Numbered from the stretch's first letter, positions 5,587 to 64,000 are shown. The stretch: DNA of 64,000 nt from Amphiscolops sp. MND2022 (GCA_964187785.1 OZ076409.1:38070001-38134000); one strand, 5' to 3'. Made by a program: numbers and translations. Notes: generated by a model from the letters alone, not told the origin.

Positions 5587-6856
5587 TAGCGGACAAGTTT
5601 GCGCCCTGTGGCGCTATTTGGCATACGTCGTCGAAGGGCATGCCTCGGCATGCCCACGGACGGTGGGCGTTAGTGAGAGTGTGTGGCGTTGACGTTAGGG
5701 CTGCGATGTAGTAGTAAAGTAAACGTAAACTAAAGGTAAAGTAAGATTCATGATGTCAAACATGATTCGACAAAACTATTGTATTCGTGTGCAATAGCAT
5801 CACTAGCGTCGAAAAAATACAAAATGGGCTCTATAGTACCTGACTTTTAGCGAGTACATTCTCATCTCCCCCACAAGGGGGGAGATGGAATGTACTCAAC
5901 TGTTTTGTGCTATCAGATGAACAAGACGGTATCAAAACTTATCAAAATTGGTCAAAACACTCTGAATGGTGTTGCTCCACTGCACAACGGCAATTTAACA
6001 GCTCTGTGGTTCATTGGACGTATTCTGATTACTTTTAAAAGACTTTTAGGTTTCTTTGATTTTTTCAGCACATACGAAGCTCACACTAAAATTATCATAA
6101 GTCAACGTCAGGTTAAGCTACAGAGTCGTATAATAGCTCATTTTTCTCGTCTATTCAAGCACTTTCCACATGCTATCACTTGCAATCCTAGTTGTGTGGA
6201 ACTTTCTTGACTTTAGGAGGCCTGAATTTGGAAAAAAAATTTTTTGAAATATTTAATTTTGATTAATAAGTCATTAATCTTTTACCCGGGGTTTGCTGGA
6301 ATGCTGAAACTCCGTATTTAGGGCCAAATGGTTTTGCTGGGAGGTAAACCGGCCAGGGGAGGTCTTTAGGAGAGTGTCTGAAAAAAAATCTGGGCAAAAA
6401 ACGGCAGAGATAGACTGGGATTTCAAAAAATTCCAAAAAAATGCCTCAAATTTTCAATTATTTCTCAATCAACTTTTATCCGATTTGGACGAAAATTTGT
6501 ATACGCACTCCTCATGAAGTGCCCAACAATAAATTAGCTAGGCGTTTTTGCGCTGGGTGAATCAGTTACGAGTAATTGTCTCTGAAAAAAAAATTTTCGA
6601 AAAAACGCCATTTTTTGACCAAAAAACTAAGATTTTGACCAACTTTTTGCGTTTTTTGGGCAAAATGCCAGTAGGGATTAGTTCTTAGGATTGTTATAGG
6701 AAGCCGTATGCAAAATTTGAGCAAATTCTGACGGCTAGTTTCCAAAATCACGTTTTTTCCATCTGGATTTGGTAGGAAGCTATCCCGTACTACTGGCCAT
6801 CCGGGGCCCCTCCCCCAATGGCAAAGATTTTGCTGAAAAAAAAATTTCCGGCCACC
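5587..6856 (+). mobile_element. Divergent class B cassette (1270 bp)
   Basis: Has the GGGCATGCCTCGGCATGCCC palindrome (5636-5655), the GAGTACATTC...GAATGTACTC hairpin and the central GCTGAAACTCCGTATTTAGGGCCAAATGG block. The sequence between these blocks is diverged from other B units. Confidence 0.65.
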
Positions 6857-9800
6857 CAGTGGAGGCAGGTACCAACTACCAGTAAGGCCTATTCAGACAA
6901 TACTTGATTGAAACTGAAGTTGGTGCAACTTAAAATTGTAAACTTTAATCGTTTTCATTTCACAACAAACTACCTCAAAAAAGTTATTTTTTCATCTTGA
7001 TAATTCTACCAAGCACCTCATTGGAAGCACATAAGTTGCACAGACTTTTATCGTTTGTCGCCAATCTTCCTCCGAAACGCTTCGCGTTCTCCCGGAACAT
7101 CGGCGATCTTTCTACATGTCATTTACCAACAAACATAGAATTCCAACAACTGAGAAAAGATTGCAGTAATTTGGGATTAAAACTTTAAAAGTGTAATCAT
7201 TAACCAAAAATAAAAATTAAATGTGTCAAATTCCCCTAAAAAGTCAGTGTAAGTGCTCGGGTACCTCGTTTTTGACCTCAAAATGTGAAAAAACATCAAA
7301 AAAGACGAAAAAACCTTTTTTTTGGAATAATTCTAAATTTTTCGAATTTTGGTAGAACTTTTGTAGAACTTTTTTTTGGCCAAAAAAACCAAAATTTGTT
7401 CCTCTTTCGATTAAACATAAAACCATTCATTTTTATCCATAGGCACTACCTATTCCATTGGGCACTTCGGAAGTCATGATAAAAAGTGTCAAAAAATCAC
7501 CTTTTTTGGTGTATATTTTCTATCATATTTCCCGATGTATTAGGACCTGGCCAAAAATTTTTGGCCATCTTGTAGCCCACTTCATTTGTACCTCACACAA
7601 AAAGTTTCGGCCTATTGGCTCCAATGGCTGAGGAGCAGCGACTGAAAAGATGCGAAAAATGGGTGATTTCGACATACATTTGCTCATAACTTCCGTCACA
7701 GGGTATGGAGCGAAAAGTGCCAGTAGGAAAAAGTTCTTACATTTTGATTCTATGTCCGCATGCAAAGTTTGAATAAATTCTAACGGTTCATTTTCGAGAT
7801 CGTCTCCGTAGACCCCCCCCCCCCCCCCAACATGTATATTTTTAGCAGGCTATTCTTCAAGCTCGTCACGGGACCCTACCCGGCCTCGCACTACTCTGTA
7901 AAGGTAAAACACCCGACCACCCAGTGGAGGCTGGTACCAACTACTAGTGAGGCCTCATCAACTACTACTTCAAATAAGAACGTGATGAAGATACGTCTTC
8001 ACTTTAATTTGCATTTGGATTGGTTAATGATTTGCATTGGATTAACTACTTTCAATTAACCATTTTCATCTTGACTAATTTATCCATTCACTTCATTGGG
8101 ACAACAGTGTGTTGCACAGACCTTTATTTGTTGTCGCCGTTCTTCCTTCGAATCGCTTCGCGTTCCTCCGGAACAACGCCGGTGTTGCTATTTGTCAAAA
8201 ATTCCAAAAAGTGATTGAAAATTCAAAGACGTCTGTTAAATGCTTCAGTAGTATATTCATTGAAAAAAAATGTCTCAAAATACTTCAAATAGTCAGCGTA
8301 AGTGCTCAGGTACCTCATTTTTGACCTCAAAATGTGAAAAAACATCAAAAAATACAAAAAAAACTTTTTTTTGGAAAAATTCTAAATTTTTCGAATTTTT
8401 GTAGAACTTTTGTAGAACTTTTTTTCGGCCAAAAAAACCAAAATTTTTTCCTCTTTCGATCAAACATAAAACCATTCATTTTTATCCATAGGCACTACCT
8501 CTTCCATTGGGCACTTCGGAAGTCATGATAAAAAGTGTCAAAAAATCACCTTTTTTGAAGTATATTTCCTATCATATCTCCCGTTGTATTAGGGCCTGGC
8601 CAAAAATTTTTGGCCATCTTGTAGCCCACTTCATTTGTACCTCACACAAAAAGTTTCGGCCTATTGGCTCCAATGGCTGAGGAGCAGCGACTGAAAAGAT
8701 GCGAAAAATGGGTGATTTCGACATACATTTGCTCATAACTTCCGTCACAGGGTATGGAGCGAAAAGTGCCAGTAGGAAAAAGTTCTTACATTTTGATTCT
8801 ATGTCCGCATGCAAAGTTTGAATAAATTCTAACGGTTCATTTTCGAGATCGTCTCCGTAGACCCCCCCCCCCCCCCCAACATGTATATTTTTAGCAGGCT
8901 ATTCTTCAAGCTCGTCACGGGACCCTACCCGGCCTCGCACTACTCTGTAAAGGTAAAACACCCGACCACCCAGTGGAGGCAGGTACCAACTACCAGTAAG
9001 GCCTATTCAGACAATACTTTATCGGAATTGAAGTTGGCGCAACTTACCATTGTAAACTTTAATGGTTTTCATTTAAAAAAAACATAGTTCAACAATTTAT
9101 TTTCTTCATCTTCAATATTCTACCAACCTCCTCATTGGAAGCACATGAGTTGCAAAGACCTTTATTTGTTGTCGCCGTTCTTCCTCCGAATCGCTTCGCG
9201 TTCCTCCGGAACAACGCCGGTGTTGCTATTTGTCATAAATTCCAAAAAGTGATTGAAACTTCAAAGACGTCTGTTAAATGCTTCAGTAGTATATTCATTG
9301 AAAAAAAATGTCTCAAAACACTTCAAATAGTCAGCGTAAGTGCTCAGGTACCTCATTTTTGACCTCAAAATGTGAAAAAAACATCAAAAAATACGAAAAA
9401 AACACTTTTTTTGGAAAAATTCTAAATTTTTCGAATTTTTGTAGAACTTTTGTAGAACTTTTTTTTCGGCCAAAAAAACCAAAATTTTTTCCTCTTTCGA
9501 TCAAACATAAAACCATTCATTTTTATCCATAGGCACTACCTATTCCATTGGGCACTTCGGAAGTCATGATAAAAAGTGTCAAAAAATCACCTTTTTTGGT
9601 GTATATTTTCTATCATATCTCCCGTTGTATTAGGACCTGGCCAAAAATTTTTGGCAATCTTGTAGCCCACTTCATTTGTACCTCACACAAAATGTTTCGG
9701 CCTTTTGGCCCCAATGGCTGAGGAGCAGCGACTGAAAAGATGCGAAAAATGGGTGATTTCGACATACATTTGCTCATAACTTCCGTCACAGGGTATGGAG

Positions 9801-10003
9801 CGAAAAGTGCCATTAGGAAAAAGTTCTTACATTTTGATTCTATGTCCGCATGCAAAGTTTGAATAAATTCTAACGGTTCATTTTCGAGATCGTCTCCGTA
9901 GACCCCCCCCAACATGTATATTTTTAGCAGGCTATTCTTCAAGCTCGTCACGGGACCCTACCCGGCCTCGCACTACTCTATGACGGTAAAACACCCGACC
10001 ACC
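6857..10003 (+). mobile_element. Three class A3 cassettes (6857-7921, 7922-8970, 8971-10003)
   Basis: Direct repeats of 1065, 1049 and 1033 bp. They start CAGTGGAGGC(A/T)GGTACCAAC and end GGGACCCTACCCGGCCTCGC...ACACCCGACCACC. Confidence 0.65.
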
Positions 10004-10045
10004 TAGGCTAACGCGTTAACGCATATCTTGGTATACGTCGTCGAA

Positions 10046-10065
10046 GGGCATGCCTCGGCATGCCC
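10046..10065. promoter_or_regulatory. Near-invariant palindrome GGGCATGCCTCGGCATGCCC (representative of 39 copies); matches the p53-family response element consensus at 19/20
   Basis: Perfect 9-bp inverted repeat. GGGCATGCCT fits RRRCWWGYYY and CGGCATGCCC fits 9/10, with no spacer. The palindrome is seen directly; its function is inferred. Confidence 0.5.
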
Positions 10066-10271
10066 ACGGACGGGGGGCGTTGATAAATATGGGGGCGTTG
10101 ATATAAAAGAATTGTTGTTGTGAGCAACTTGGTATTAAAAGGCACGTGCTGATTTTTCGGCATATCCAGACAGATTACCAAGATATAACTCTATGAAAAT
10201 GTCGGAACCAATATGTAATCCTTATACTGCGTAGCTCGGGAAGGTAAGGGCCGTAGTTCGGTGCTTTTTGC

Positions 10272-10315
10272 GAGTACATTCTCATCTCCCCCGGAAGGGG
10301 GGATGGAATGTACTC
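10272..10315. other. Class B internal 44-nt hairpin GAGTACATTC-TCATCTCCC..GGG(G/A)GATG-GAATGTACTC (representative)
   Basis: Perfect 10-bp outer inverted repeat plus an inner stem. Present in the B units even where the flanks diverge. Confidence 0.85.
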
Positions 10316-11231
10316 AACTGTTTCAAGTTATTTGATGAGAAAAAAATGAATAAATACACAAAATTTTTTTATTATAACAACAAAAAAGTATGTCAAACGA
10401 CAACAAAGGGTGTTGATTGATTGCCAAACTGCCATGAATTACGTTCTGAGCAAACCATATTGCATCTCAATGGCTTTCAGATCAGATAAAGACTCATAAC
10501 GTTTACTATTCACGTGCTTTACACCTCCAAACATCACCTTCAAAACGTCATAAGTCAACGTTGAGCCAAGATAAAAAGACGTTCTAAACGGCATTTTTCT
10601 CCTCTAAACAAGGGCTTTGCACATGCATTCACTTGCTTTACTGGTTTGGGGGTCTTTTCCCCCACTTTGGGGGCCCAAATAACGGAAAAAAAATTTTTTG
10701 AAAATTTTTGAAATTTTCTAAGTCCCACAACTTTTCGCCCGGGAATGCTGGAACGCTGAAACTCCGTATTTAGGGCCAAATGGTTTTGCTGGGAATAAAA
10801 CCGGCCAGGGGAGGCCTTTAGGCGAGTGCATTTTCGAAAAAATGGCAAAGATAAGCTGGACCGTTAGAAAAATGAAACCCCCCCGCTCCGGAAAAACGCT
10901 ATATCTCCTCGAGTTTAAGTCCGATTGAGCTGAAAATTTCACACAGCATTCCTGAGACAGTTTGCAAACTTTCGTCAGCAAGGTTTGGAAGCGCTAGCGT
11001 GCACCCGTGGCGAGATATGAGATGAAATTTAAAAAAAGTTGAAAATTTTACCCCAAAAACCGTTATTTTGGTCAACAAAAAATGTTTAGCGAGCAAAACG
11101 TCAGTAGGGAATCATCTTCACCGTGCCGAGGGGGGTACGTGTGCCAAATTTCAGCCAAATCGTATGGCTAGTTTACGAGATCCCAATTTTTTATGTCGTT
11201 TTCATCGGTTGAAAGACCCGATACCACGGAA

Positions 11232-11296
11232 GCGCGTCAGGGACCCTCCCCAACCGCGCAACTTCCCCCATTGTGTAAAAAAACACCGGCACCTAG
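11232..11296 (+). other. Representative cassette junction (putative recombination or integration site): GCGCG..GGGACCCTCCCC..CGCGC hairpin, about 30 nt, then CACC|TAG
   Basis: The architecture is shared by all three classes. In the junctions I measured, the GGRNCCC motif starts 50-54 nt before the crossover. Confidence 0.75.
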
Positions 11297-14200
11297 CAGC
11301 TACCGCGCTAACGCATATTTTGGTGCGGGTCGTCGAAGGGCATGCCTCGGCATGCCCACGGACGGGGGGCGTTGATAAATATGGGGGCGTTGATATAAAA
11401 TAATTGTCGTTGTGAGCAACTTGGTATTAAAAGGCACGTGCTGATTTTTCGGCATATCCAGACAGATTACCAAGATATAACTCTATGAAAATGTCGGAAC
11501 CAATATGTAATCCTTATACTGCGTAGCTCGGGAAGGTAAGGGCCGTAGTTCGGTGCTTTTTGCGAGTACATTCTCATCTCCCCCGGAAGGGGGGGATGGA
11601 ATGTACTCAACTGTTCCAAGTTATTTGATGAGAAAAAAATGAATAAATACACAAAATTTTCTATTATAAAAACAAAAAAGTATGTCAAACGACAACAAAG
11701 GGTGTTGATTGATTGCCAAACTGCCATGAATTACGTTTTGAGCAAACCATATTGCATCTCAATGGCTTTCAGTTCAGATAAATACTCATAACGTTTACTA
11801 TTCACGTGCTTTACACCTCCAAACATCACCTTCAAAACGTCATAAGTCAACGTTGAGCCAAGATAAAAAGACGTTCTAAACGGCATTTTTCTCGTCCAAA
11901 CAAGGGCTTTGCACATGCATTCACTTGCTTTACTGGTTGGGGGGTCTTTTCCCCCACTTTGGGGGCCCAAATAACGGAAAAAAAATTTTTGAAAATTTTT
12001 GAAATTTTTCAAGTCCCACAACTTTTCGCCCGGGAATGCTGGAACGCTGAAACTCCGTATTTAGGGCCAAATGGTTTTGCTGGGAATAAAACCGGCCAGG
12101 GGAGGCCTTTAGGCGAGTGCATTTTCGAAAAAATGGCAAAGATAAGCTTGACCGTTAGAAAAATGAAACCCCCCCGCTCCGGAAAAACGCTATATCTCCT
12201 CGAGTTTAAGTCGGATTGAGCTGAAAATTTCACACAGCATTCCTGAGACAGTTTGCAAACTTTCGTCAGCAAGGTTTGGAAGCGCTAGCGTGTACCCGTG
12301 GCGAGATATAAGATGAAATTTAAAAAAAGTTGAAAATTTTACCCCAAAAACCGTTATTTTGGTCAACAAAAAATGTTTAGCGAGCAAAACGTCAGTAGGG
12401 AATCATCTTCACCGTGCCGAGGGGGGTACGTGTGCCAAGTTTCAGCCAAATCGTACGGCTAGTTTTCGAGATCCCAAAATTTTTGATGGGTACGTAAAGG
12501 TTAAAAAATCCGAAATCCCGGGAGCGCGTCAGGGACCCTCCCCACACGCGCAACATCCCCCTTTGTGTAAAAAAACACCGGCACCTAGCGGGGAAAGACT
12601 GCGTGGCACTGGGCATTTGGCATACGTCGTCGAAGGGCATGCCTCGGCATGCCCACGGACGATGGGGCGTTGATGCAAGCAGGGGGCGTTGACGTTAGAG
12701 ATGTATGGTGGTAGTAGTAGGAGCAAGTAATGTACTTCATGTTAATTATTGTTTTAAAAAATCAAGTAATTAAAAATAACTTTTTTCAAAGCATAGAAAA
12801 CTTCCCATCCAAACATTGGCGCCATAGCATTAGGTTTTTAGCGAGTACATTCTCATCTCCCCCGAAAGGGAGATGAAATGTACTCAACTGCTTGATGTTA
12901 AAAGATGAGATAAATTGGAATAAATACATAAAAACAGTTATTATATAGAAGAAAAAAATACTCAAATGACATCAAAGTGTACTAATACTCTGCTAACCTA
13001 CAATGAAAATCGTTTTTAGCAAAACTGCTTGTATCTCAATGGTTTTCCGATGAGATAAAGACTCAAAACTTCAACTTTTAACATGCTTCATATATCCTAA
13101 CATCACATTCAAAACGTCATAAGTCAATGTCAAGTTAAGATAAAAAGATGTGCTAAACGGCATTTTTCTCCTCCAAACATGGGCGTTCCACATGAATTCA
13201 CTCAAAATACTGGTTGGGGGGTCGTTCCCCTTCATTGGGGGCCCGGAAAACGGGAAAAAATTTTTTTTAAAAATTTTGATATTTTTCCAAGTCCCACAAC
13301 TTTCCGCCCCGGAATGCTGGAACGCTGAAACTCCGTATTTAGGGCCAAATGGGTTTGCTGGGAGTAAATTCGGCCAGGGGGAGGCCTTTAGGCATGTACA
13401 TTTTCCAAAAAATGGCAAAGATAAGCTGGACCGTTAAAAAATTTACCCCGGAAACGCCCAAAAAACCGTTAATTTCTCGCCAAGTTTCAGTCCGATTTGA
13501 ACCAAAATTTGTCCACGCACTCCTCCAACAGCGCTGAGCAATATTGACGTCCACGTGCGGAACGCTACGGGCACCTGGAAATGAGATATTGGCTGACAAA
13601 CTTGAAAAAAGTGCATTTTTGTCATTTTTGGGTCCGTTATTTGCCCATATCTCCTCTCACAGTGGAATTTGGGAAAAATTACCTCCTACACGTTTTACCT
13701 ACTCACCAATTCCAGGCCACATGCCAAATTTCAGAAAAATCGTATGGCTCAAACTATGAGATCTCGTAGAATTCTGCACGTTTCGGTGAGCATCCAATTC
13801 TTCTAGGTCGTCGCGGGGCCCTACCCACTCCTCGATGCAAAAGCACGTCGAAAAGACACGGCCACCTAGGCTAACGCGCTCGAACATATCTTGGTATACG
13901 TCGTCGAAGGGCATGCCTCGGCATGCCCACGGACGGGGGGCGTTGATAAATATGGGGGCGTTGATATAAAATAAATGTCGTTGTGAGCAACTTGGTATAA
14001 AAAAGCACGTGCTGGTTTTTCTGCATACCCAGACAGATTACCAAGATATAACTCTATCAAAATGTCGGAACCAATATGCAATCTTTATACTGCGTAGCTC
14101 AGGAAGGTAAGGGCCGTAGTTCGGGGCTTTTTGCGAGTACATTCTCATCTCCCCCGTGAAGGGGGGATGGAATGTACTCAACTGTTTCAAGTTATTTGAT

Positions 14201-15153
14201 GAGAAAAAAATGAATAAATATACGAAATTTTTTCTTATATCAACAAAAAAAGATGTCAAATGACAACAAAGGGTGTTGATTGACTACCAAACTGATATGA
14301 ATTACGTTTTGAGCAAAACAGGTTGCATCTCAATGGCTTTCAGATCAGATAAATACTCATAACGTTTACTTTTCACGTGCTTCACACCTCCAAACATCAC
14401 CTTCAAAACGTCATAAGTCAACGTTGAGCCAAGATAAAAAGACGATTTAAACGGGATTTTTCTCCTCTAAACATGGCCTTTCCACATGAATTCACTCAAA
14501 TTACTGGTTGGGGGGTCTTTTCCCCTAGGGGGGGAGGGCGGAAAACGGGAAAAAAAAATTTTGAAATTTTTTGAAATTTTCTAAGTCCCACAACTTTTCG
14601 CCCGGGAATGCTGGAACGCTGAAACTCCGTATTTAGGGCCAAATGGTTTTGCTGGGAATAAAACCGGCCAGGGGAGGTCTTTAGGCGAGTACATTTTCGA
14701 AAAAATGGCTAAGATAAGCTGGACCGTTAGAAAAATGAAACCCCCCCGCTCCGGAAAAACGCTATATCTCCCCGAGTTTAAGTCCAATTGAGCTGAAAAT
14801 TTCACACCGCATTCCTGAGACAGTTTGCAAGCTTCCTTTAGCAGGGTTTTGAAGCGCTAGCGTAAACCGGTGGCGAGAAATAAGATAAAATTTGAAAAAA
14901 ATTCAAAATTTTACCCCAAAAACCGTTATTTTGGACAACAAAAAAAATTTTGCGGGAAAAACGTCAGTAGGAAATCATCTTCACCATGCCGAGGGGAGTA
15001 CGTGTGCCAAATTTCAGCCAAATCGTGTGGCTAGTTTAGGAGATCCCGAAAAATCGACCCCTGTTTCCTAGCTGGTGAACACCATACCCAAGAGCGCGCC
15101 AGGGACCCTACCCACACGCGCCACATACTTTATCGAATAGAAATCCCGGCACC

Positions 15154-18100
15154 TAGCTGCTACCGCAATCGGGAGTAGATATGGAGGTTGTTTGGTATAC
15201 GTCGTCGAAGGGCATGCCTCGGCATGCCCACAGACGGTGGGCGTTGATGTAAAGTATGTGGCGTTGACGTTAATTAAGTTAAAACGTGAGGTTTCAGCTT
15301 CCATAATGAGACCTAATAAAAATGTTGATCTTCTTTTTCAATGTTATTTAGTTTTAGTCAATACCATTTATTATTTTATTCAATTTGGTGGCATTAGGAC
15401 ACATTTTGAATGGAAAAAAATCAACTTTGTAAACAATTTGTTAATTAATATTCTTATAACGGAATTATCACATCGTTTTTGCCGTTGGCAAACTGTTGAT
15501 GAAGCTCTAATTGGTACTAATGCAACATATACCTACCCAAAAACACTCTTGATTAACGATTTTAGAAGGATAGCCCTTCCAAGTTGACACCAGGCCAACT
15601 TGAAAGGCTATCAAAATGTAACGGTTATGTTGACTGAAACATTGGAGGTCCCTGAAACTAATGTGAAAAAATTTTATTTCCGAAAAAAGTCCGTATTAGT
15701 TGATATTATGACGATTCAACCCACAAAACTACGCCTAAAGACATTTTGAAACCAAAAAACATATTCTGTAACTAACGGTTTGGACTTCCGGTGCTATATA
15801 CCGTTACCCCCCACAAAGTTTCATGACTATGTTCACTTCTGGAGGCCTTTAAAACACCTTCCAGGTACTTTTATCCATAAAATACCAAACATTTGTACCC
15901 TACAAACACAAAATTTGGCCCTTTCCGGTTGTTAACGGTACCAGGGGGACTTTGGGGTCAACGTAACGGTTACTTCCGAATGCTCTCCTCACGACCTCCA
16001 TTACATCATATAGTGTCCAAGCACATATTACCATTCCTTTCGCACCTAAATGCCCTTCAAAAGGTATAAAAATTGCAATTCTACTCACATAACGGTCATT
16101 TCCGGTCTCAAGGGGTAACGGGGGGTGACTGAAACTAGATCCCCCAACTCGTCTCAATGAGTACTACAATATGTTACCTAACGTTGCCCGGCTAGGATCG
16201 ACCCTTTGGGCTCAAAAAGTGCAATTTCCGGTCACATAGCGGTTAGGCTGGGGGGCCAAGTCGGTAACGGTGATAGATAGCGGTAATCTGTTTGCCCCCC
16301 TGAAGGCACCATATCATGGGTATGAAACCTTGTAGTAGTGATGGACACGATTGCTCCACGCGTTCAAGAGATATTTACCCCTCAATGCCCGTTTTCCGGT
16401 TTTGACAGTAAAAAAAGGAGGCGATCACCCTTGTAACGGCTAACGGGTTGGGTCAGGGGGTCCCAAACTACATGTTTCCGGTTGGTCCTTGTCTAAACCT
16501 ACTTTTGATATATGGCACCCGACACGCTACTCCCACACCTTCACACCGGAAATAACGGGGAAAATTGAAGGGGGGTAATTTTAAAACTCACATAACGGTC
16601 ATTTCCCGTCCGAGGGGTAAACTGGGGCCGGCAAACTACATGTCCCCCAACACGTCTCCAGATGCACTACAAAACATTACCGAACGACTCCGTGCTCAGA
16701 CGACTCCTTCCCGGTCAAAAAGTGCAATTTCCGGCAAAATAACGGTTGGGCCGGGGGGGCAAGTCCGTAACGGTGCATGATAGAAAAATTTTGTTTGGAC
16801 CTACGGAGGCCCCTTATCACCTACATGAGGTTTTGTCTGCTGACCGGAAGCGCTAAATCCACGGGGGGAAAAGATATGACGCAAAAAATAAATTTCACCC
16901 CCTGAGTTACCCCTTAACGGTCCCCGTTACCCATGATCTCCATTTTTGCCCAACATCGAACCCAGTGGGGGGCGATCTACTCTCAAAAAGTGAGTGGGGG
17001 CCAAAAAATTAAAGAAGGGGCGTGGTTAGTTCCCGAGATCGGGTTTAAAAGGTATAGGTTTTTAACGATAGCTGGCGGCACTCAGCTCGGAATCAGGACC
17101 CTACCCGATTCCTCCAAGAAAAAAGTTGGGGTTTCCCCCCCGCACCTAGCCCGGGATGTACGGGCGTCGTTAGAAGGGATTTGCCATACGTCGTCGAAGG
17201 GCATGCCTCGGCATGCCCACAGACGGTGTGCGTTGATGTAAAGTGTGTGGCGTTGACGTTAATTAAACTAAAAGATGACGTTTCAGCTTCCATAATGAAA
17301 TGTAATTTTCAATTTGAACTTTTATAAATCTGTTACAAACATTCCAATTATTACCATTTGTTAGGTAAATAGGTTTCCTGGCATTTAGGACACATTTTGT
17401 ATGGAAAAAACCATTTTTTTAACAATTTGCTCACTATGATTCTAATAACGGAATCATGACGGCATAGTTTTTGTCGTTGATACACTGTTGATGAAGCTCT
17501 AATTGGTACTAATGCAATATATACCTACCCAAAAACACTCTTGATTAACGATTTCAGAAGGATAGCGCTTCCAAGTTGACACCAGGCCAACTTGAAAGGC
17601 TATCATAAGTTAACGGTTATGTTGGTTGAGGTTTCGGAGTCTCTGAAACTATATGGAAAAACTTTAATTTTTAAAAATAGTCCACAAGAGTCGAAAAAAT
17701 TACGCCGAAAGACATTTTAAAACCAAAAAACCTATCCTGTCTCCAACGGTTTGACTTCCGGTGCTATATACCGTTACCCCCCACAAGGTTTCATGACTAT
17801 GTTCACTACTGTAGACCGTCGAAACACCTAATAGATACTTTCATCTACAAAATACAAAACATTTGTACCCAATAGACACAAAATTTGACCATTTCCGGTC
17901 GTTTACGGTACCAGGGGGACTTTAGGGTCAACATAACGGTTATTTCCGAATGCTCGCCTCACGTCCTCCCTTACCTCATATAGTGTCCAAGCACCTATTA
18001 CCACTTCTTCCGCACCTAAATACACTTGAAAAAGTATAAAAATTGCAATTTTACCCACATAACGGTCATTTCCGGTCCCAAGGGGTAACGGGGGATGACT

Positions 18101-21100: not shown

Positions 21101-23082
21101 GCGCTCGGGGGTGTTGTGTGGGTGGAATTTGGTATACGTCGTCGAAAGGCATGCCTCGGCATGCCTACGGACGGTGGGCGTTGATGTAAAGTATGTGGCG
21201 TTGACGTTAATTAAACTATAATTTGACGTTTCAGCTTCCATAACGAGACCTATTAAAATGTTGATCTTCTTTTTCATTGTTATTTAGTTTTAGTCAATAC
21301 CATTTATTATTTTATTCAATTTGGTGGAATCAGGACACATTTTACATTGAAAAAATCAACTTTGTAAACAATTTGTTAACTAATATTCTTATAACGGAAT
21401 TATCACGACATCGTTTTTGCCGTTGGCAAACTGTTGATGAAGCTCTAATTGGTACTAATGCAACATATACCTACCCGAAAACACTCTTGATTAACGATTT
21501 TAGAAGGATAGCCCTTCCAAGTTGACACCAGGCCAACTTGAAAGGCTATCAAAATGTAACGGTTATGTTGACTGAAGCATTGGAGGTCCCTGAAACTAAT
21601 GTGAAAAAATTTTATTTCCGAAAAAAGTCCGTATTAGTTGATATTATGACGATTCAACCCACAAAACTACGCCTAAAGACATTTTGAAACCAAAAAACCT
21701 ATTCTGTAACCAACGGTTTGGACTTCCGGTGCTATATACCGTTACCCCCCACAAGGTTTAATGACTATGTTCACTTCTGAAGGCCTTTAAAACACCTTCC
21801 AGGTACTTTTATCCATAAAATACCAAACATTTGTACCCTATAAACACAAAATTTGGCCATTTCCGTTCGTTAACGGTACCAGGAGGACTTTGGGGTCAAC
21901 GTAACGGTTACTTCCGAATGCTCTCCTCTCGACCTCCATTTCATCATATGGTGTCCAAGCACCTATTACCACTCCTTCCGCACCTAAATACACTTGAAAA
22001 AGTATAAAACTTGCAATTTTACCCACATAACGGTCCTTTCCGGTCCCAAGGGGTAACGGGGTGTGACTGAAACTATATCCCCCAACTCGTCTCAATTAGC
22101 ACTACAATAAGTTACCTAACGTTCCCCGGCTGGGACCGACCCTTTGGGCTCAAAAAGTGACATTTCCGGTCACATAGCGGTTAGGCTGGGGGGCCAAGTC
22201 GGTAACGGTGATAGATAGCGGAAATCTGTTTGCCCCCCTGAAGGCACCATATCATGGGTATGAAACCTTGTAGTAGTGATGGACACGATTGCTCCACGCG
22301 TTCACGAGATATTTACCCCTCAATGCCCATTTTACGGTTTTAGCAGTAAAAAAAGGAGGCGGAAGCCCCATTTCCCGCTAACGGGTTGGACCAGGGGGTC
22401 CCAAACCACATGTTTCCGATAGGTCCTTGTCTAAACCTACTTTTGATATATGACACCCGACGCGCTACTCCCACTCCTTCACACCGGAAATAGCGGTAAA
22501 ACGTGGAGGGGGGCATTTTTCCCGCTCATATAACGGTCATTTCCCGTGCGGGGGGTAAACTGGGGTCGGCAAACTATATATCCCCCGCTTCGTCTCGAGG
22601 CCGTCCCCAAAACATCACCTAACGATCCCGCGCTCAGACGACTCCTTCCGGGTCAAAAACCGGCATTTCCGGAAAAATAACGGTTTGGGCGGGGGGGTAC
22701 TTGGAGATAGCTTCAAGATAGAAAAATTTGGTTTGGACCTCCGGGGCCCCTGCAACACGGTCAAGAAACTTTTAGCAGGGTCCCAAAGTTTTAATCCAAC
22801 AGGAAAAAAGTTAAGCGACATTATATAAATTTTACCCCTAAAATGACCCCTAACGGTCGCCCGTGTACCCCGTCAGAATATTTCAATCACGCTGGAACCC
22901 GGTGGGGGGCGAATAACTTTGGAAAATCTGGTGGGGGCCGCTCCAACTTTAAAATCCTATGGTTAGATCACGAGATCGCAAAAAATTTCCCAGATTTCTA
23001 CTGAGAGCTGGCGGCACTGAACTCGGATTCAGGACCCTACCCGAATCCTCCAAGATAAGGGATGGGGTTTCCCCCCCGCACC
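15154..23082 (+). mobile_element. Four class C (subtype C1) cassettes (1993, 1969, 1974, 1993 bp)
   Basis: Units start at 15154, 17147, 19116 and 21090. They have the same 5' palindrome as class B but a different body with a GATAGCC...GGCTATC hairpin and a TAACGG-rich interior. They end AGGACCCTACCCG...CCCCCGCACC. Confidence 0.7.
15569..15612. other. Class C internal 44-nt hairpin GATAGCC..CAAGTTG..CAACTTG..GGCTATC (representative)
   Basis: Two nested inverted repeats, present in all 8 C units. The inner stem is mutated in the 37992 copy. Confidence 0.85.
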
Positions 23083-53100: not shown

Positions 53101-53623
53101 ATTTAGGGCCAAATGGTTTTGCTGGGAATAAAACCGGCCAGGGGAGGCCTTTAGGCGAGTGCATTTTCGAAAAAATGGCAAAGATAAGCTGGACCGTTAG
53201 AAAAATGAAACCCCCCCGCTCCGGAAAAACGCTCTATCTCCCCGAGTTTAAGTCCGATTGAGCTGAAAATTTCACACCGCATTCCTGAGACAGTTTGCAA
53301 GCTTTCTTTAGCAGGGTTTTGAAGCGCTAGCGTAAACCGGTGGCGAGATATAAGATAAAAATTAAAAAAAATTCAAAATTTTCCACCAAAAACCGTTATT
53401 TTGGACAACAAAAAAAATTTTGCGAGCAAAACACTAGTAGGAAATCATCTTCACCATGCCGAGGGGAGTACGTGTGCCAAATTTCAGCCAAATCGTGTGG
53501 CTAGTTTAGGAGATCCCGAAAAATCGACCCCTATTTCCTAGCTGGTGAACACCATACCCAAGAGCGCGCCAGGGACCCTACCCACACGCGCCACATACTT
53601 TATCGAATAGAAATCCCGGCACC
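47200..53623 (+). mobile_element. Five class B cassettes
   Basis: Units start at 47200, 48489, 49761, 51048 and 52339. Units 49761 and 52339 are the same subtype as 13867. Confidence 0.7.
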
Positions 53624-55595
53624 TAGCCCGGGATGTACGGGCGTCGTTAGGTATGTATTTGGTATACATCGTCGAAGGGCATGCCTCGGCATGCCCACAG
53701 ACGGTGGGCGTTGATGTAAAGTGTGTGGCGTTGACGTTAATTAAACTATGTTATGAAGTTTTAGCTTGAATAATGAAACGTAATAATCAATTTGAACTTT
53801 TATTACCTGTTATATACAATTCAATCAATACCATTTGTTTGGTAAAGAAGTTTTCTGGCTTTTAGAACACATTTGAAATGTAAAAAATTAATTTTATCAA
53901 CAGTTTGTTAACTACTATTCTAATAACGGAATCATCACGACGTAGTTTTTGTCGTTGGCAAACTTTTCTTGAAGCTCTAATTGATTCTAAATTGATACAA
54001 ACATACCCAAAAACACACTTGATTAACGATTATTGAAGGATAGCCCCTCCAAGTTGACACCAGGCCAACTTGAAAGGCTATCATAAAGTAACGGTTATGT
54101 TGGTTGAGGTTTCGGAGTCTCTGAAACTATATGGAAAAACTTTAATTTTTAAAAATAGTCCATAATAGTCAACAAAAGTACGCCGAAAGACATTTTAAAA
54201 CCAAAAAACCTATCCTGTCTCCAACGGTTTGGACTTCCGGTGCTATATACCGTTACCCCCCGTAAGGTTTCATGACTATGTTCACTACTGCAGACCGTCG
54301 AAACACCTAATAGGTACTTTTATTCATAAAACACCAAACATTTGTACTCAATAGACACAAAATTTGACCATTTCCGGTCGTTTACGGTACCAGGGGGACT
54401 TTGGGGTCAACATAACGGTTATTTCCGAATGCTCGCCTCACGTCCTCCCTTGCCTCATATAGTGTCCAAGCACCTATTACCACTCCTTCCGCACCTAATT
54501 GCCCTTCAAAAAGCACAAAAATCGCAATTTTACCCACATAACGGTCATTTCCGGTCACAAGGGGTAACGGGGGGTGACTGAAACTATATCCCCCAACTCG
54601 TCTCATTGAGTACTACAATAAGTTACCTAACGATGCCGCGCTCGGACTGACCCTTTGGGCTCAAAAAGTGACATTTCCGGTAACATAGCGGTTAGGCTGG
54701 GGGGCCAAGTCGGTAACGGTGATAGATAGCGGAAATCTGTTTGCCCCCCTGAAGGCACCATATGATGGGCATGAAACCTTGTAGTAGTGAAGGACACGAT
54801 TGCTCCACGCGTTCACGAGATATTTACCCCTCAATGCCCATTTTACGGTTTTAGCAGTAAAAAAAGGAGGCGGAAGCGCCATTTCCCGCTAACGGGTTGG
54901 TCCAGGGGGTCCCAAACCACATGTTTCCGATAGGTCCTTGTCTAAACCTACTTTTGATATATGACACCCGACGCGCTAATCCCACTCCTTCACACCGGAA
55001 ATAGCGGTAAAACGTGGAGGGGGGCATTTTTCACGCTCATATAACGGTCATTTCCCGTCCGGGGGGTAAATTGAGGTTGGCAAACTACTTGTCCCCCACT
55101 TCGTCTCAAGGCCGTCCCCAATACATCACCTAACGACCCCGCGCTCAGACGACTCCTTCCGGGTCAAAAACCTGCGTTTCCGGAAAAATAACGGTTTGAG
55201 CGGGGGGGGTACTTGGAGATAGCTTCAAGATAGAAAATTTTGGTTTGGACCTTCGGGGCCCCTGCAACACGGTCAAGAAACTTTTAGCAGGGTTCCAAAG
55301 TTTTTAATCAACAGAAAAAAAGTTATGTGGCCCAATATGAATTTTACCCCTAAAATGACCCCCTAACGGTCGCCCGTGTGGCCAGAAAAAAATTTTCCGG
55401 GGTATGGAACCCGGTGGGGGGCGCTAATTTTCGGAAAATCTGGTGGGGGCCGCTCCAACTTTAAAATCCTATGGTTAGATCACGAGATCCCGAAATTTTT
55501 GCAAGATTTCCTATCGATAGCTATTAGAGTTAAAATCGGATTCAGGACCCTACCCGAATCCTCCAATATATTTGTTGGGGTTTCCCCCCCGCACC
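53624..55595 (+). mobile_element. Class C1 cassette (1972 bp), isolated among B units
   Basis: Starts TAGCCCGGGATGTACGGGCG like 17147-19115 and has the same end type. Confidence 0.7.
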
Positions 55596-58500
55596 TAGCT
55601 GCTACCGCGCTCCAGGTATATCTTGGTATACGTCGTCGAAGGGCATGCCTCGGCATGCCCACGGACGGTGGGCGTTGATGCAAGTAGGGGGGCGCTGACG
55701 TTAGAGATGAGTTGTGGTATGCTGAGTTTCAAAGTAAGTAAGAAACGTTCATTTTGTCGAGTCACAGAGGGCAAAAAGAAGTTTTCTGCGACAAACTGAA
55801 ACCATTTGCAATCCCTTTTGTGTTGTGGAAGATATAGTCCGTAGTTCCTGACCTTTAGCGAGTACATTCTCATCTCCCCCGGGAAGGGAGATGGAATGTA
55901 CTCAACTGTTTCAAGTTATTTGATGAGAAAAAAATGAATAAATACACAAAAAAATTGTTATTATAGAAACGAAAATTACGTGAAAAGACACCAAAGGGTG
56001 ATAATGGACAGCGAAACTGCAATGAAACACGTTTTGAGCAAAACATGTTGTATCTCAATGGCTTTCAGATGGGATAAATACTCAAAACATCAATTTTCCG
56101 TATCTAACGGTCACCTTCAAAACGACAAAAGTCAATGTCAAGTTACGATAAAAAGACGTTCTAAACGGCATTTTTCTCGTTTAAACAAGGGCTTTCCACA
56201 TGCATTCACTTGCTTTACTGGTTGGGGGGTCTTTTCCCCCACTTTGAGGGCCCAAATAACGGAAAAATTTTTTTTTGAAAATTTTTGAACTTTTCTAAGT
56301 CCCACAACTTTTCGCCCGGGAATGCTGGAACGCTGAAACTCCGTATTTAGGGCCAAATGGTTTTGTTGGGAATAAAACCGGCCAGGGGAGGCCTTTAGGC
56401 GATTGCATTTTCGAAAAAATGGCAAAGATAAGCTGGACCGTTAGAAAAATGAAACCCCCCCGCTCCGGAAAAACGCTATATCTCCTCGAGTTTAAGTCCG
56501 ATTGAGCTGAAAATTTCACACAGCATTCCTGAGACAGTTTGCAAACTTTCGTCAGCAAGGTTTGGAAGCGCTAGCGTGTACCCGTGGCGAGATATAAGAT
56601 GAAATTTAAAAAAAGTTGAAAATTTTACCCCAAAAACCGTTATTTTGGTCAACAAAAAATGTTTAGCGGGAAAAACGTCAGTAGGGAATCATCTTCACCG
56701 TGCCGAGGGGGGTACGTGTGCCAAATTTCAGCCAAATCGTATGGCTAGTTTACGAGATCCCAATTTTTTGTCGCGTTTTCATCGGTTGAAAGACCCGATA
56801 CCACGGAAGCGCGTCAGGGACCCTCCCCAACCGCGCAACTTCCCCCATTGTGTAAAAAAACACCGGCACCTAGCCGCTACCGCGCTTGGGAGTATATTTT
56901 GGTGCGGGTCGTCGAAGGGCATGCCTCGGCATGCCCACGGACGGGGGGCGTTGATAAATATGGGGGCGTTGATATAAAATAATTGTCGTTGTGAGCAACT
57001 TGGTATAAAAAGGCACGTGCTGATTTTTCTGCATATCCAGACAGATTACCAAGATATAACTCTATCAAAATGTCGAAACCAATATGCAATCTTTATACTG
57101 CGTAGCTCGGGAAGGTAAGGGCCATAGTTCGGGGCTTTTTGCGAGTACATTCTCATCTCCCCCGGGAAGGGAGATGGAATGTACTCAACTGTTTCAAGTT
57201 ATTTGATGAGAAAAAAATAAATAAATACACAAAATTTTTTATTATATCAACAAAAAAATATGTAAAACGACAACAAAGGGTGTTGATTGACTGCCAAACT
57301 GAAATGAATTACGTTTTGGGCAAATCAGATTGCATCTGAATGGCTTTCAGATCAAATAAATACTCATAACGTTTACTTTTCACGTGCTTCACACCTCTTT
57401 ACATCACCTTCAAAACGTCATAAGTCAACGTTGAGTAAAGATAAAAAGACGTTCTAAACGACATTTTTCTCCTCTAAACAAGCGCTTTGCACATGCATTC
57501 ACTCAAAATACTGGTTGGGGGGTCCTTTCCCCCACATTGGGGGCCCAAATAACGGAAAAAAATTTTTTGAAACTTTTTGAAATTTTCTAAGTCCCACAAC
57601 TTTTCGCCCGGAAATGCTAGAACGCTGAAACCCCGTATTTAGGGCCAAATGGTTTTTTTGGGAGTAAAACCGGCCAGGGGAGGCCTTTAGGCGAGTGCAT
57701 TTTCGAAAAAATGGCAAAGATACGCTGGACCGTTAGAAAAATGAAACCCCCCCGCTCCGGAAAAACGCTATATCTCCTCGAGTTTAAGTCCGATTGAGCT
57801 GAAAATTTCACACCGCATTCCTGAGACAGTTTGCAAACTTTCGTCAGCAAGGTTTTGAAGCGCTAGCGTAAACCTGGGGCGAGATATAAGATGAAATTTA
57901 AAAAAAGTTGAAAATTTTCCACCAAAAACCGTTATTTTGGTCAACAAAAAATGTTTAGCGGGCAAAACGTCAGTAGGGAATCATCTTCACCGTGCCGAGG
58001 GGGGTACGTGTGCCAAATTTCAGCCAAATCGTATGGATAGTTTACGAGATCGGAGATAACTGGGGTGTGAATTTGGAGTAGGAAAACCGAAAACACAGGA
58101 GCGCGCCAGGGGCCCTACCCACACGCGCAGAATTCCTTATCGAATGGAAATCCCGGCACCTAGCTGCTACCGCGCTCGGGGCATATTTTGGTGCACGTCG
58201 TCGAAGGGCATGCCTCGGCATGCCCACGGACGGGGGGCGTTGATTTTTGTGGGGGGCGTTGATTTAAATTAATTGTCGTTGCGAGCAACTTGGTATAAAA
58301 TGGCACGTGCTGATTTTTCTGCAAATCCAGACATATTACCAAGATACAACTCCATTAAAATGTCTGGACCATTATGTTATCTTTATACTGCGTATCTCGG
58401 GAAGGTATGGGCCGTAGTTCGCGGCTTTTTGCGAGTACATTCTCATCTCCCCCGGGAAGGGAGATGGAATGTACTCAACTGTTTCAAGTAAAAATATAAG

Positions 58501-61500
58501 AAAAAAAAATTAATGGAAAGTAAGAAAAGTAATCAAAATTTATTAATTTTCAGGAGAAAAGTTTTTTAAACAGAGTAAAAAGACACCAAAATGCGTTTAA
58601 ACGATACCAAACTATTAGAAACCACGCTCTGGGCTTCACAGCGTGTGATTCAATGACTTTCTGATGAAATAAAATCAAAAAAATTCCTTTTTTTACATGC
58701 TTCACACGTCCAAACATCACCTTTAAAGCTTCATAAGTCAATGTCAGGTTGAGATATAAAGACGTTCTAAACGGCAATTTTTTCGTCTAAACATGGCCTT
58801 TCCACATGAATTCACTCAAATTACTGGTTGGGGGGTCTTTTCCCCTAGGGGGGGAGGGCGGAAAACGGAAAAAAAAAATTTTTGAAAATTTTTGAATTTT
58901 TCTAAGTCCCACAACTTTTCGCCCGGGAATGCTGGAACGCTGAAACTCCGTATTTAGGGCCAAATGGTTTTGCTGGGAATAAAACCGGCCAGGGGAGGTC
59001 TTTAGGCGAGTACATTTTCGAAAAAATGGCAAAGATAAGCTGGACCGTTAGAAAAATGAAACCCCCCCGCTCCGGAAAAACGCTATATCTCCCCGAGTTT
59101 AAGTCCGATTGAGCTGAAAATTTCACACCGCATTCCTGAGACAGTTTGCAAGCTTTCTTTAGCAGGGTTTTGAAGCGCTAGCGTAAACCGGTGGCGAGAT
59201 ATAAGATAAAATTTAAAAAAAATTCAAAATTTTACCCCAAAAACCGTTATTTTGGACAACAAAAAAAATTTTGCGGGAAAAACGTCAGTAGGAAATCATC
59301 TTCACCGTGCCGAGGGGAGTACGTGTGCCAAATTTCAGCCAAATCGTGTGGCTAGTTTACGAGATCCCGAAAAATCGACCCCTATTTCCTAGCTGGTGAA
59401 CACCATACCCAAGAGCGCGCCAGGGACCCTACCCACACGCGCCACATACTTTATCGAATAGAAATCCCGGCACCTAGCGGCTACCGCGCTCGGGAGCATA
59501 TTTTGGTATACGTCGTCGAAGGGCATGCCTCGGCATGCCCACGGACGGTGGGCGTTGATGTGAACTATGGGGCGTTGACGTAAAAGAGATGGCGTTGTTA
59601 AGATACTTGATATAAAAGAGCACGTGCGGCATTTTCTTCATTTCCAGTCAAATTACAAAGATAAAATTATGTCAAAATATCTGGATCAAAACGCAATTTT
59701 TATGGGGCGTTGCTCGGGGAAGGTAAGTACTGTAGTACCTGGTCTCTAAAGAGTACATTCTCATCTCCCCCGTGAAGGGAGATGGAATGTACTCAACTGT
59801 TTCGAGTCATGAGATCAGAAAAAAAATGTGAATAATTATAAATAATTTTTGATTTTAGTCGGAAAATTTTTTTAAAACAGAGTCAAAAGACACAAAAAAG
59901 TGTTGATGCATTGCTAAATTAGAATTAAACACGTTCTGAGTCACACACCGTGTATCTCAATGACTTTTAGAAGAGCTAAAGACACAATAAATTACCTTTT
60001 CACATGCTTCACACATCCAAACATCACCTTCAAAACAACATAAGTCAACGACAGGTTAAAATAAAAAGACAATCTAAACGGCATTTTTCTTCTCTAAACA
60101 TGGCCTTTCCACATGAATTCACTCAAATTACTGGTTGGGGGGTCTTTTCCCCTCGGGGGGGAGGGCGGAAAACGGAAAAAAATTTTTTGAAAAATTTTGA
60201 AATTTTTCTAAGTCCCACAACTTTTCGCCCGGGAATGCTGGAACGCTGAAACTCCGTATTTAGGGCCAAATGGTTTTGCTGGGATTAAAACCGGCCAGGG
60301 GAGGCCTTTAGGCGAGTGCATTTTCGAAAAAATGGCAAAGATAAGCTGGACCGTTAGAAAAATGAAACCCCCCCCGCTCCGGAAAAACGCTATATCTCCT
60401 CGAGTTTAAGTCCGATTGAGCTGAAAATTTCACACCGCATTCCTGAGACAGTTTGCAAACTTTCGTCAGCAAGGTTTGGAAGCGCTAGCGTGTACCCGTG
60501 GCGAGATATAAGATGAAGTTTAAAAAAAGTTGAAAATTTTACCCCAAAAACCGTTATTTTGGTCAACAAAAAATGTTTAGCGGGAAAAACGTCAGTAGGG
60601 AATCATCTTCACCGTGCCGAGGGGGGTACGTGTGACAAATTTCAGCCAAATCGTATGGCTAGTTTACGAGATCCCAATTTTTTATGTCGTTTTCATCGGT
60701 TGAAAGACCCGATACCACGGAAGCGCGTCAGGGACCCTCCCCAACCGCGCAACATCCCCCATTGTGTAAAAAAACACCGGCACCTAGCGGCTACCGCGTT
60801 CGAATATATTTTGCTATACGTCGTCGAAGGGCATGCCTCGGCATGCCCACGGACGGGGGGCGTTGATGTGTGTGGGGGGCGTTGACGTTAGAGATGAGTT
60901 GTGGTATGGTGAGATTCAAAGTAAGTAAGAAACGTTCACTTTGTCGAGTCACAGAGTGCAAAAAGAAGTTTTCTGCGACAAACTGAAACAATTTGCAATC
61001 TCTTTTGTGTTGTGGAAGATATAGACCGTAGTTCCTGACCTTTAGCGAGTACATTCTCATCTCCCCCGGGAAGGGAGATGGAATGTACTCAACTGTTTCA
61101 AGTTATTTGATGAGAAAAAAATGAATAAATACACAAAGAAATTGTTATTATAGAAAAAAAAATTACGTCAAAAGACACCAAAGGGTGTTAATGGACAGCG
61201 AAACTGCAATGAAACACGTTTTGAGCAAAACATGTTGTATCTCAATGGCTTTCAGATGGGATAAACACTCAAAACATCAATTTTCCGTATCTAACGGTCA
61301 CCTTCAAAACGACAAAAGTCAATGTCAAGTTACAATAAAAAAACGTTCTAAACGCCATTTTTCTCGTCTAAACAAGGGCTTTCCACATGCATTCACTTGC
61401 TTTACTGGTTGGGGGGTCTTTTGCCCCACTTTGGGGGCCCAAATAACGGAAAAAATTTTTTTGAAAATTTTTGAAATTTTCTAAGTCCCACAACTTTTCG

Positions 61501-64000
61501 CCCGGGAATGCTGGAACGCTGAAACTCCGTATTTAGGGCCAAATGGTTTTGCTGGGAATAAAACCGGCCAGGGGAGGCCTTTAGGCGAGTGCATTTTCGA
61601 AAAAATGGCAAAGATAAGCTGGACCGTTAGAAAAATGAAACCCCCCCGCTCCGGAAAAACGCTATATCTCCTCGAGTTTAAGTCCGATTGGGCTGAAATT
61701 TTCACACCGCATTCCTGAGACAGTTTGTAAACTTTCGTCAGCAAGGTTTTGAAGCGCTAGCGTAAACCTGGGGCGAGATATAAGATGAAATTTAAAAAAA
61801 GTTGAAAATTTTCCACCAAAAACCGTTATTTTGGTCAACAAAAAATGTTTAGCGGGCAAAACGTCAGTAGGGAATCATCTTCACCGTGCCGAGGGGGGTA
61901 CGTGTGCCAAATTTCAGCCAAATCGTGTGGCTAGTTTACGAGATCGTCGAAATCACATCGTGAATTTGGAGTAGGTGTACCCGAAATAAAAGAGCGCGCC
62001 AGGGGCCCTACCCACACGCGCCACATACTCGAACGAATAGTAATCCCGGCACCTAGCGAAAATGACTGCGTGGCACTGGGCATTTGGCATACGTCGTCGA
62101 AGGGCATGCCTCGGCATGCCCACGGACGGTGGGCGTTGATGCAAGCAGGGGGGCGTTGACGTTGGAGGTGGATTGTAGTAGTAAAGTCAAGTAATGTATT
62201 TCAAGTATATGAATTTTTAAAAAATTCCGAAAAAATACAAAAACAAGTCTGTAAGAAGATAAAAAACGCGGGTTTCAAACTTTTGGTCATGGCGCTGGGT
62301 CTTTAGCGAGTACATTCTCATCTCCCCCGAAAGGGAGATGAAATGTACTCAACTGTTTTGAGTTATAAGATGATAAAAATTGGAATAAATACATTAAAAT
62401 TGTTAATATATCGACGAAAAGTATGTTTATATGACACCAAAGGGTATTGGTGCACTGGAAAATTACAACGAAAGACGTTTTGAGCAGGACAGCTTGCATC
62501 TCAACCGCTTTCATATGAGATAAAGACTCAAAACATCAACTTTTCACATGCCTCCTACATCCTTACATCACATTCAAAACGTCATAAGTCAACGTTGAGT
62601 CAAGATAAAAAGATGTTCTAAACGGTATTTTTCTCGTCAAAACAAGGGCTTTTGACATGCATTCACTCAAATTACTGGTTGGGGGGTCGTTTCCCCTTCA
62701 TTGGGGGCCCGGAAAACGAAAAAAAAATTTTTGAAAATTTTTGAAAATTTTCCAAGTCCCACAACTTTTCGCCCGGGAATGCTGGAACGCTGAAACTCCG
62801 TATTTAGGGCCAAATGGTTTTGCTGGGAGTAAATTCGGCCAGGGGGAGGCCTTTAGGCGAGTACATTTTCGAAAAAATGGCAAAGATAAGCTGGACCGTT
62901 AGAAAAGGTTCCCCAAAAATACCGTTATTTCTCCAAGACTACAAGTCCGATCGGAACGGGCCCAAGTTCACCGTACAGCCTCAACACCCTAGAGTTTATA
63001 TTCAGCTTAACGCGTCCCGCTCCGGGCACCTGGGAACGAGATATGGGCTGACAAAGTTGAAAAAAGTGCATTTTTGCCATTTTTGGGACCGTTATTTGCC
63101 CATATCTCCTCTCACAGTGGAATTTGGGAAAAATCACCTCCTACACGTTTTACCTACTCACCAATTCCAGGCCACATGCCAAATTTCAGAAAAATCGTAT
63201 GGCTCAAACTATGAGATCTCGTAGAATTCTGCACGTTTCGGTGAGCATCCAATTCTTCTAGGTCGTCGCGGGGCCCTACCCACTCCTCGATGCAAAAGCA
63301 CGTCGAAAAGACACGGCCACCTAGGCTAACGCGTTAACGCATATCTTGGTATACGTCGTCGAAGGGCATGCCTCGGCATGCCCACGGACGGGGGGCGTTG
63401 ATAAATATGGGGGCGTTGATATAAAATAATTGTCGTTGTAAGCAACTTGGTATTAAAAGGCACGTGCTGATTTTTCTGCATATCCAGACAGATTACCAAG
63501 ATTTAACTCTATGAAAATGTCGGAACCAATATGTAATCCTTATACTGCGTAGCTCGGGAAGGTAAGGGCCGTAGTTCGGTGCTTTTTGCGAGTACATTCT
63601 CATCTCCCCCGGAAGGGGGGATGGAATGTACTCAACTGTTTCAAGTTATTTGATGAGAAAAAAATGAATAAATACACAAAATTTTTTATTATAACAACAA
63701 AAAAATATGTCAAACGACAACAAAGGGTGTTGATTGATTGCCAAACTGCCATGAATTACGTTCTGAGCAAACCATATTGCATCTCAATGGCTTTCAGATC
63801 AGATAAATACTCATAACGTTTACTATTCACGTGCTTTACACCTCCAAACATCACCTTCAAAACGTCATAAGTCAACGTTGAGCCAAGATAAAAAGACGTT
63901 CTAAACGGCATTTTTCTCCTCTAAACAAGGGCTTTGCACATGCATTCACTTGCTTTACTGGTTTGGGGGTCTTTTCCCCCACTTTGGGGGCCCAAATAAC
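55596..64000 (+). mobile_element. Six class B cassettes plus a partial seventh running off the window
   Basis: Units start at 55596, 56871, 58161, 59475, 60785, 62054 and 63322 (partial). Confidence 0.7.

Follow-up and report, generated by a model that had tools for sequence, protein, structure and literature searches.

We tentatively propose, with a confidence that stops somewhat short of an even chance, that the 20-nt doubled palindrome recurring through the window (the whole stretch of DNA analysed, 64,000 nt) forms the core of a putative left-end recognition site of non-autonomous HUH rolling-circle elements, Helitron- or IS91-like, which target their own 3' end. The array holds units that have been reshuffled at the junction between them and almost nowhere else, and right-end hairpins that keep their shape while their sequence changes, set against a left block that is fixed in sequence. 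It is this combination of a fixed left end, shape-conserved right hairpins, a single orientation and an end that is also the target that leads us to rolling-circle transfer by an HUH enzyme. Coordinates are collected in Table 1.

Table 1. Coordinates of the array and of the unit features discussed in the text.
Feature	Position	Strand	Remarks
Head-to-tail array of non-coding mobile units	1..64000	+	44 whole units (2333-63321) and a partial unit at either window edge
Partial class-A-like unit	1..2332	+	353-363 nt internal tandem repeats; standard right end
Three class A units without palindrome	2333..5586	+	junction and right end as in the other units
Extra piece of 78 nt	4440..4517	+	left-end-like start, ends AACC; class A left end at 4518 adjoins
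Three further class A units without palindrome	6857..10003	+	
Unit junction CACC-TAG, inferred break and join point	10000..10006	+	example of 45
Variable-length spacer from junction to conserved block	10004..10029	+	moves with the downstream unit
Left-end conserved block of 35 nt, holding the palindrome	10037..10071	+	example from unit 10004-11293; invariant in 30/30 B-type units
Doubled palindrome of 20 nt, p53 consensus 19/20	10046..10065	+	one of 39 copies, from the first at 5636 to the last at 63364
Pair of GGCGTTGA direct repeats 3' of the palindrome	10076..10101	+	possible iterons
Long internal hairpin of B-type units	10272..10315	+	44 nt, z=-7.6, 0/200 shuffles; variable loop
Second invariant 20-nt block, non-palindromic	10764..10783	+	30 B-type units
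Core motif lying some 110-200 nt 5' of the right end	11098..11182	+	all classes and the L001 upstream unit; from alignment
Right terminal sequence	11232..11293	+	stem-loop round a GG(A/G)CCCT(A/C)CC core, second short hairpin, terminal CACC
A…T variant with G at +23	21147..21169	+	patch like L001, unlike sibling class C units

Along the + strand of the 64-kb window there are 45 junctions of the form CACC-(T/C/A)AG, the hyphen marking the join, and the 44 whole units fall into three size groups (1033-1147, 1268-1318 and 1969-2017 nt) without a single identical pair. No transposase gene was found in the window, where the longest stop-to-stop reading frame runs to 148 aa, nor did a solo insertion, an empty site or a circle come to light. 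The style of the repeats suggests a eukaryotic host, probably an invertebrate animal. All six class A units lie within the first seven units of the array, an arrangement with a chance of about 1e-6, so that either the array is polarised or families favour their own kind of junction (2333-10003). Internal repeats, tandem or dispersed, occur with a period of 353-363 nt at 332-1889 in the first unit and with a spacing of 503 nt at 16083-16819 in class C, and resemble the central repeats of non-autonomous rolling-circle elements. The observed-to-expected CpG ratio of 1.03 indicates no CpG depletion, and methylation-driven decay was discarded on this ratio and on the singleton transitions (10 at 126 CpG sites versus 31 at 427 other C/G sites). 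Among the sequencing runs listed, a single one matched (share 0.16) and none was of RNA; it gave 21 low-depth contigs of mixed likeness over 12540-17190, one of which (depth 2.1) joins right end 15145 to left end 12578, and the run contigs listed hold no palindrome variants. As this run may come from the source sample itself, we give none of this evidential weight.

The point at which units break and join emerges from the similarity of their ends. Across CACC, how alike the upstream right ends are says essentially nothing about how alike the left ends downstream are (39 junctions, Mantel r=0.049, p=0.27), whereas similarity is linked across the palindrome (r=0.694, 39 junctions) and between a unit's own two ends (r=0.745, 38 units). 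Because the ends are unlinked across CACC and linked across the palindrome, we take CACC to be the boundary and the palindrome to be subterminal; as linkage continues across it, the palindrome is ruled out as a crossover site. From 10004 on, likeness between neighbours is at the random level (p=0.39, 37 units). Ordinary unequal crossing-over would preserve junction pairs, and joining at the junction is therefore the main process, but since a few neighbour pairs do recur (4 dimers versus 0.55 expected, at one of three thresholds), duplication acts too. Recurring two-unit blocks occupy 10004-12585, 23083-25668 and 28231-30808, and also 34114-36722 and 42578-45184; we read them as duplication, or read-through, of two units. 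Exact identity of 199 and 300 nt flanks junctions 11294 and 29518.

Among the 256 CACC tetranucleotides of the + strand, 44 are junctions and the other 212, judged by unit lengths, interrupt no unit, except for the 4440-4517 piece, possibly the trace of a join that followed a near-cognate tetranucleotide. CACC could represent either the end of the element or a 4-bp duplication, and the lone AACC-TAG join, where a class A left end begins at 4518, favours the former. In the first 20-40 nt past the junctions the spacer varies in length and sequence; alike starts are seen in class B and class C, which suggests that left ends have been exchanged between classes.

Shuffling at a single 4-nt core and the absence of terminal inverted repeats would also suit cassettes that a tyrosine or serine recombinase cuts out as double-stranded circles and re-inserts, as in Cryptons or integrons. 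Crossover would then take place at CACC, and the palindrome would serve as an accessory or arm-type site; for Cryptons, terminal direct repeats of 4-6 bp are described and circles proposed in the available part of one account (PMC3212892). Inverted arms of 11-13 bp at the core are, however, not visible by eye in the alignment, the palindrome lies 37-57 nt off at a variable distance, the shape-conserved hairpins suggest a single strand, and the same account found animal Cryptons to lack terminal repeats (PMC3212892), so that we hold this explanation to be distinctly unlikely. When the first 130 nt of each unit are compared with its last 130, inverted matches reach no more than 5-8 nt in 44/44 units, and the longest direct matches between unit ends are of 5-9 nt at inconsistent positions, CACC alone recurring, once per junction.

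An earlier note on this DNA had reported 39 near-invariant copies of the palindrome in 5636..63383, and a search allowing up to 4 mismatches bears this out: 38 copies are exact, one at 21147-21166 is an A…T variant, and all share one orientation on one strand. The distance of about 35-60 nt from the junction that it gave agrees with the 37-57 nt found after 39 of 45 junctions, the remaining six opening class A units without the palindrome. Its observation that the motif is conserved between classes with differing bodies also holds, in that the palindrome region is the only stretch of at least 9 nt to recur in 36 or more of the 38 complete units with a palindrome, and the sole such stretch shared by B-type and class C units. 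The conserved block extends beyond the 20-mer, to about 35 nt. Column counts over the 39 copies show no change between -7 and +27 of the 20-mer other than at positions 1, 20 and 23. In the 30 B-type units this is an unbroken 35-nt block, longer than any other invariant stretch there; of all their columns, 29% do not vary. Parsimony on a tree of 40 left ends places no change at -7..0 or at six of the seven sites in 21-27, and within the 20-mer only one paired change, while each flanking site beyond the block changed about twice; gene conversion between left ends could inflate this invariance. The exact palindrome, in four spellings, was absent from the literature searched.

Such conservation bears on what the block might do. 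The longer imperfect outer stem in which the palindrome was said to sit is one register of several, and variants disrupt its two outermost pairs; a shifted register turns one of these variants into a wobble change, but its own last pair is broken in 5 of 16 rows. Variants that keep pairing while breaking the CATG cores would speak for a structural role, but the arms are not freely variable and, unlike the other hairpins of the units, do not drift, which leaves a purely structural, pairing-only role unsupported. Since sequence and symmetry are both kept, the pattern points instead to a protein that reads the entire block.

The one variant copy gains its meaning from a relative outside the window. 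Our metagenome pattern scan yielded a sole locus, a single contig (L001) that contains the right end of one unit, a CACC-TCG junction and a downstream unit with the A…T allele, about 70% identical to class B over the aligned part only; it represents a diverged member in which the block, the tandem context and CACC are retained. Set beside its class C sibling, the unit at 21090 shows three differences, at positions 1, 20 and 23; as all of them match L001 (51/51 nt identical), the A…T pair probably arose once and came in as an imported patch. The compensatory change that the earlier note saw at 21147-21166 is thus real as a paired outer difference between families, but is probably not an independent double mutation. 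It is the only two-sided change among the eight palindrome pairs and, with a single probable origin, cannot separate the models: pairing, palindrome self-repair and symmetric binding would each account for it, and a p53 site accommodates it as well, so that it decides nothing.

The same relative weighs on the notion of a functionless block, in which gene conversion and palindrome self-repair simply erase differences across the array. In favour of this, the 21147 patch shows left ends passing from one family to another, but conservation falls sharply on either side of the block, and the block persists in L001, whose body is only about 70% identical to the window units; we consider this explanation extremely improbable. 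Elsewhere, four specific patterns gave no matches in viral contigs, the patterns scanned gave none in prokaryote genomes, and no autonomous Rep/HUH partner was found in scans of the viral, prokaryote and metagenome collections. A loose junction pattern was set aside: it reached at least 120 loci, and because none of the 120 listed has BLAST similarity to the window, we regard these loci as chance.

That the 20-mer resembles a p53-family element is not in doubt. Against two RRRCWWGYYY decamers with zero spacer, the 19/20 match reported earlier is found in 39/39 copies. The window holds no other zero-spacer p53 site with at most 2 mismatches, and when one unit was shuffled 300 times by dinucleotides, no shuffle yielded a site with at most 1. 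A match of 19/20 is uncommon by chance, arising in about 3-6 per 10,000 random palindromes with 9-bp arms (0.0003-0.0006) and in 192 of 16384 doubled palindromes (0.012), and the sole changes within the motif preserve R and Y. CATG is the high-affinity p53 core. Judged from its letters, the 20-mer could well be bound by a host p53-family protein of vertebrate-like specificity, if one is present.

The block might accordingly be conserved as a working p53/p63/p73 element, through which a host factor opens chromatin or drives transcription for mobility, for example in the germline or upon DNA damage. The consensus is two RRRCWWGYYY decamers with a spacer of 0-1 nt (PMC7498329), and the zero spacer seen here is favourable in that spacers above 1 nt cut binding sharply (PMC4287438, available part); p53 binds nucleosomal DNA (PMC7498329), and transposon-borne p53 sites are known from LTR10 (LTR10B) and MER61 (PMC4287438, available part) and on record for EnSpm-N6_DR (PMC3649676, available part). 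However, the non-consensus loop C at position 11 is fixed in 40/40 copies, L001 included, and the nine internal R/Y sites together with position 11 show 0 changes where 6-8 are expected (p=0.0005-0.002, rough), or 3-4 if the flank rate is halved for homoplasy (p=0.02-0.05, likewise rough). Moreover, the 14 invariant flanking bases of the block lie outside the motif, where p53 would not read them, six class A units of the array do without the site, and in mammals fewer than 8% of predicted sites recruit p53 (PMC7498329). Variation of the motif type, with R/Y positions and flanks free, is therefore not what the array displays, the R/Y sites, C11 and 14 flank sites all being invariant, although conversion may inflate this. 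Given C11, the flanks and the class A units, we find p53 binding less likely as the cause of conservation, and as an explanation of the block it seems to us unlikely. Of the two possibilities raised in the earlier note, a p53-family site or a site for the mobilising enzyme, the second thus fits best, as p53 alone leaves C11, the flanks and the R/Y invariance unexplained.

At the right end, it is shape that appears to be kept. Matched arms of the first hairpin fold better than mismatched ones (p=0.017, 12 types, with one right end dropped after the core pattern missed it). The second hairpin, only a few nt short of the unit's terminus, forms in 11 of the 14 right-end types and fails to fold in 3, and its matched-arm test gave p=0.006-0.04 at 5 of 10 cut points and no significance at the other 5; RNAalifold on the right-end alignment returned 2 pairs and no covariation. 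The class C right-end core (around 16960-16975 and equivalents) reads AACC-CAGTGG, like the class A junction CACC-CAGTGG, and is possibly a relic junction. Class B units carry an internal inverted pair, involving the shared core motif, at 10922-10938 and 11146-11162. The B-type internal hairpin (10272-10315), more stable than the palindrome, is conserved in B-type units and in L001, where it shows one compensatory pair; of the second invariant block, a 19-nt form is present in 30 copies in the window and one in L001.

Several conserved hairpins per unit, in some of which G-T has given way to A-T on the + strand, and the stability of the RNA folds might also mean that the block works in RNA, as a protein-binding stem with an internal loop, within units that form a structured RNA or whose transcripts a site-specific reverse transcriptase copies. 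Yet no unit is truncated or tailed and the ends are exact throughout, and the searches for RNA families were negative: Rfam gave 0 matches at gathering score in 64 kb and, in a relaxed search of 8.4 kb, nine sub-threshold matches with nothing credible to E=5, and a tRNA scan found no match. We therefore judge an RNA-level role very unlikely. On the same searches the identification of the units with tRNA or a known RNA family was dropped, and they show no Rfam or ribozyme membership; a hammerhead ribozyme was discarded as well, a core pattern for it matching some B units with no stem II visible by eye.

Returning to the rolling-circle reading that we prefer, we hypothesize that a transposase encoded elsewhere would bind the left block, recognising it either in hairpin form or as a pair of palindromic half-sites in tandem. 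The + strand would be nicked after CACC, the unit peeled off as far as the right-end hairpins, a second cut made after the unit's own CACC, and the copy joined 3' of CACC at a resident junction. Because the unit end re-creates the target, arrays would grow and shuffle. Class A would then be a sister family with another left-end site, and the p53 match incidental or secondary. Each of these enzymatic steps is one that we infer. They have precedents: Helitron transposition involves a left-end nick and a second nick just past the right-end stem-loop, and in Paramecium Helitrons ends and target can differ from TC/CTRR and from insertion between A and T (both from the available part of PMC13085455), while hairpins and orientation-specific targets are general among Rep transposons (PMC10288648, available part). 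Enzyme recognition and p53-driven conservation can also hold together. We can conceive of a composite origin, quite improbable in our estimation, in which a host p53/p63-family protein would read the duplex to open or time it and the transposase would read the single-stranded hairpin, in a new class of eukaryotic rolling-circle elements that target only their own junction and build integron-like shuffled arrays.

Elements that land only on their own junctions spare host genes, and an enzyme that moves them would amount to a site-specific integrase whose landing pad is a short piece of DNA. As the array fixes both ends to the base, searching the host genome once should be enough to find the partner. 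Should the p53-family site turn out to be functional, this would be a transposon family that uses the genome guardian as a required cofactor, the known cases being ones that only spread sites; if not, the array still offers a well-delimited new end architecture of non-autonomous elements.

Among known systems, the terminator end of IS91 repeats the target tetranucleotide, and strict targeting to its own junction is not known in that family. IS91 elements are also alike in their orientation-specific insertion beside a tetranucleotide (PMC10288648, available part), but are bacterial. Replitrons share the HUH logic, insertion 3' of a short target and a right-end hairpin; unlike them, the array has neither fuzzy ends nor a direct repeat at or near both termini, and the available part of their description does not mention metazoa (PMC10288648). 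Cryptons resemble the units in lacking terminal inverted repeats and in a short core at the ends, and CACC, which stands on both sides of each unit, might count as a terminal direct repeat of 4-6 bp; the array, however, has no inverted arms at the core and no recombinase was found in the window, and shuffled arrays are not described for Cryptons in the available part of PMC3212892. IS200/IS605-type guide tetranucleotides were set aside, as a check by eye gave no consistent fit. The p53 elements of LTR10, MER61 and EnSpm-N6_DR likewise pair a strong zero-spacer two-half-site motif with spread by a mobile element (PMC4287438 and PMC3649676, available parts), whereas the array motif lies within a larger invariant, foldable block and is known here from sequence.

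HLE1 Helitrons and HLE2 Helentrons/HINEs are alike in their non-coding derivatives, central repeats, reported tandem insertions and a 3' hairpin, a putative one in the array (available parts of PMC11417382, PMC4067079 and PMC5148889), but the array stacks mixed families at one junction. In place of the 5'-TC start and insertion between A and T of HLE1, 45/45 junctions read CACC-(T/C/A)AG; in place of 3'-CTRR, the + strand ends in CACC, and on a minus-strand reading the nearest fixed hairpin lies 37-57 nt off. A canonical Helitron on the minus strand was rejected, CTAG or CTGG standing at 44/45 junctions but CTTG at one and CGAG in L001. The subterminal inverted repeats of 11-17 nt typical of HLE2 are matched by none longer than 5-8 nt in 44/44 units, and the junctions do not show its target between T and T. 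The third-class Helitrons of Paramecium and their non-autonomous derivatives share with the array a conserved left end, a single orientation, internal satellites, gene-less copies, a covarying right-end stem-loop and a non-CTRR, target-like terminal tetranucleotide (PMC13085455, available part); they differ in targeting telomeric repeats, in ending with CCAA and in being flanked by repeats, where the units here abut at CACC. Shuffled self-targeting arrays are not described in the literature searched, and the family may already be named. By the descriptions compared, the units fit no named family, and they behave like non-autonomous rolling-circle elements.
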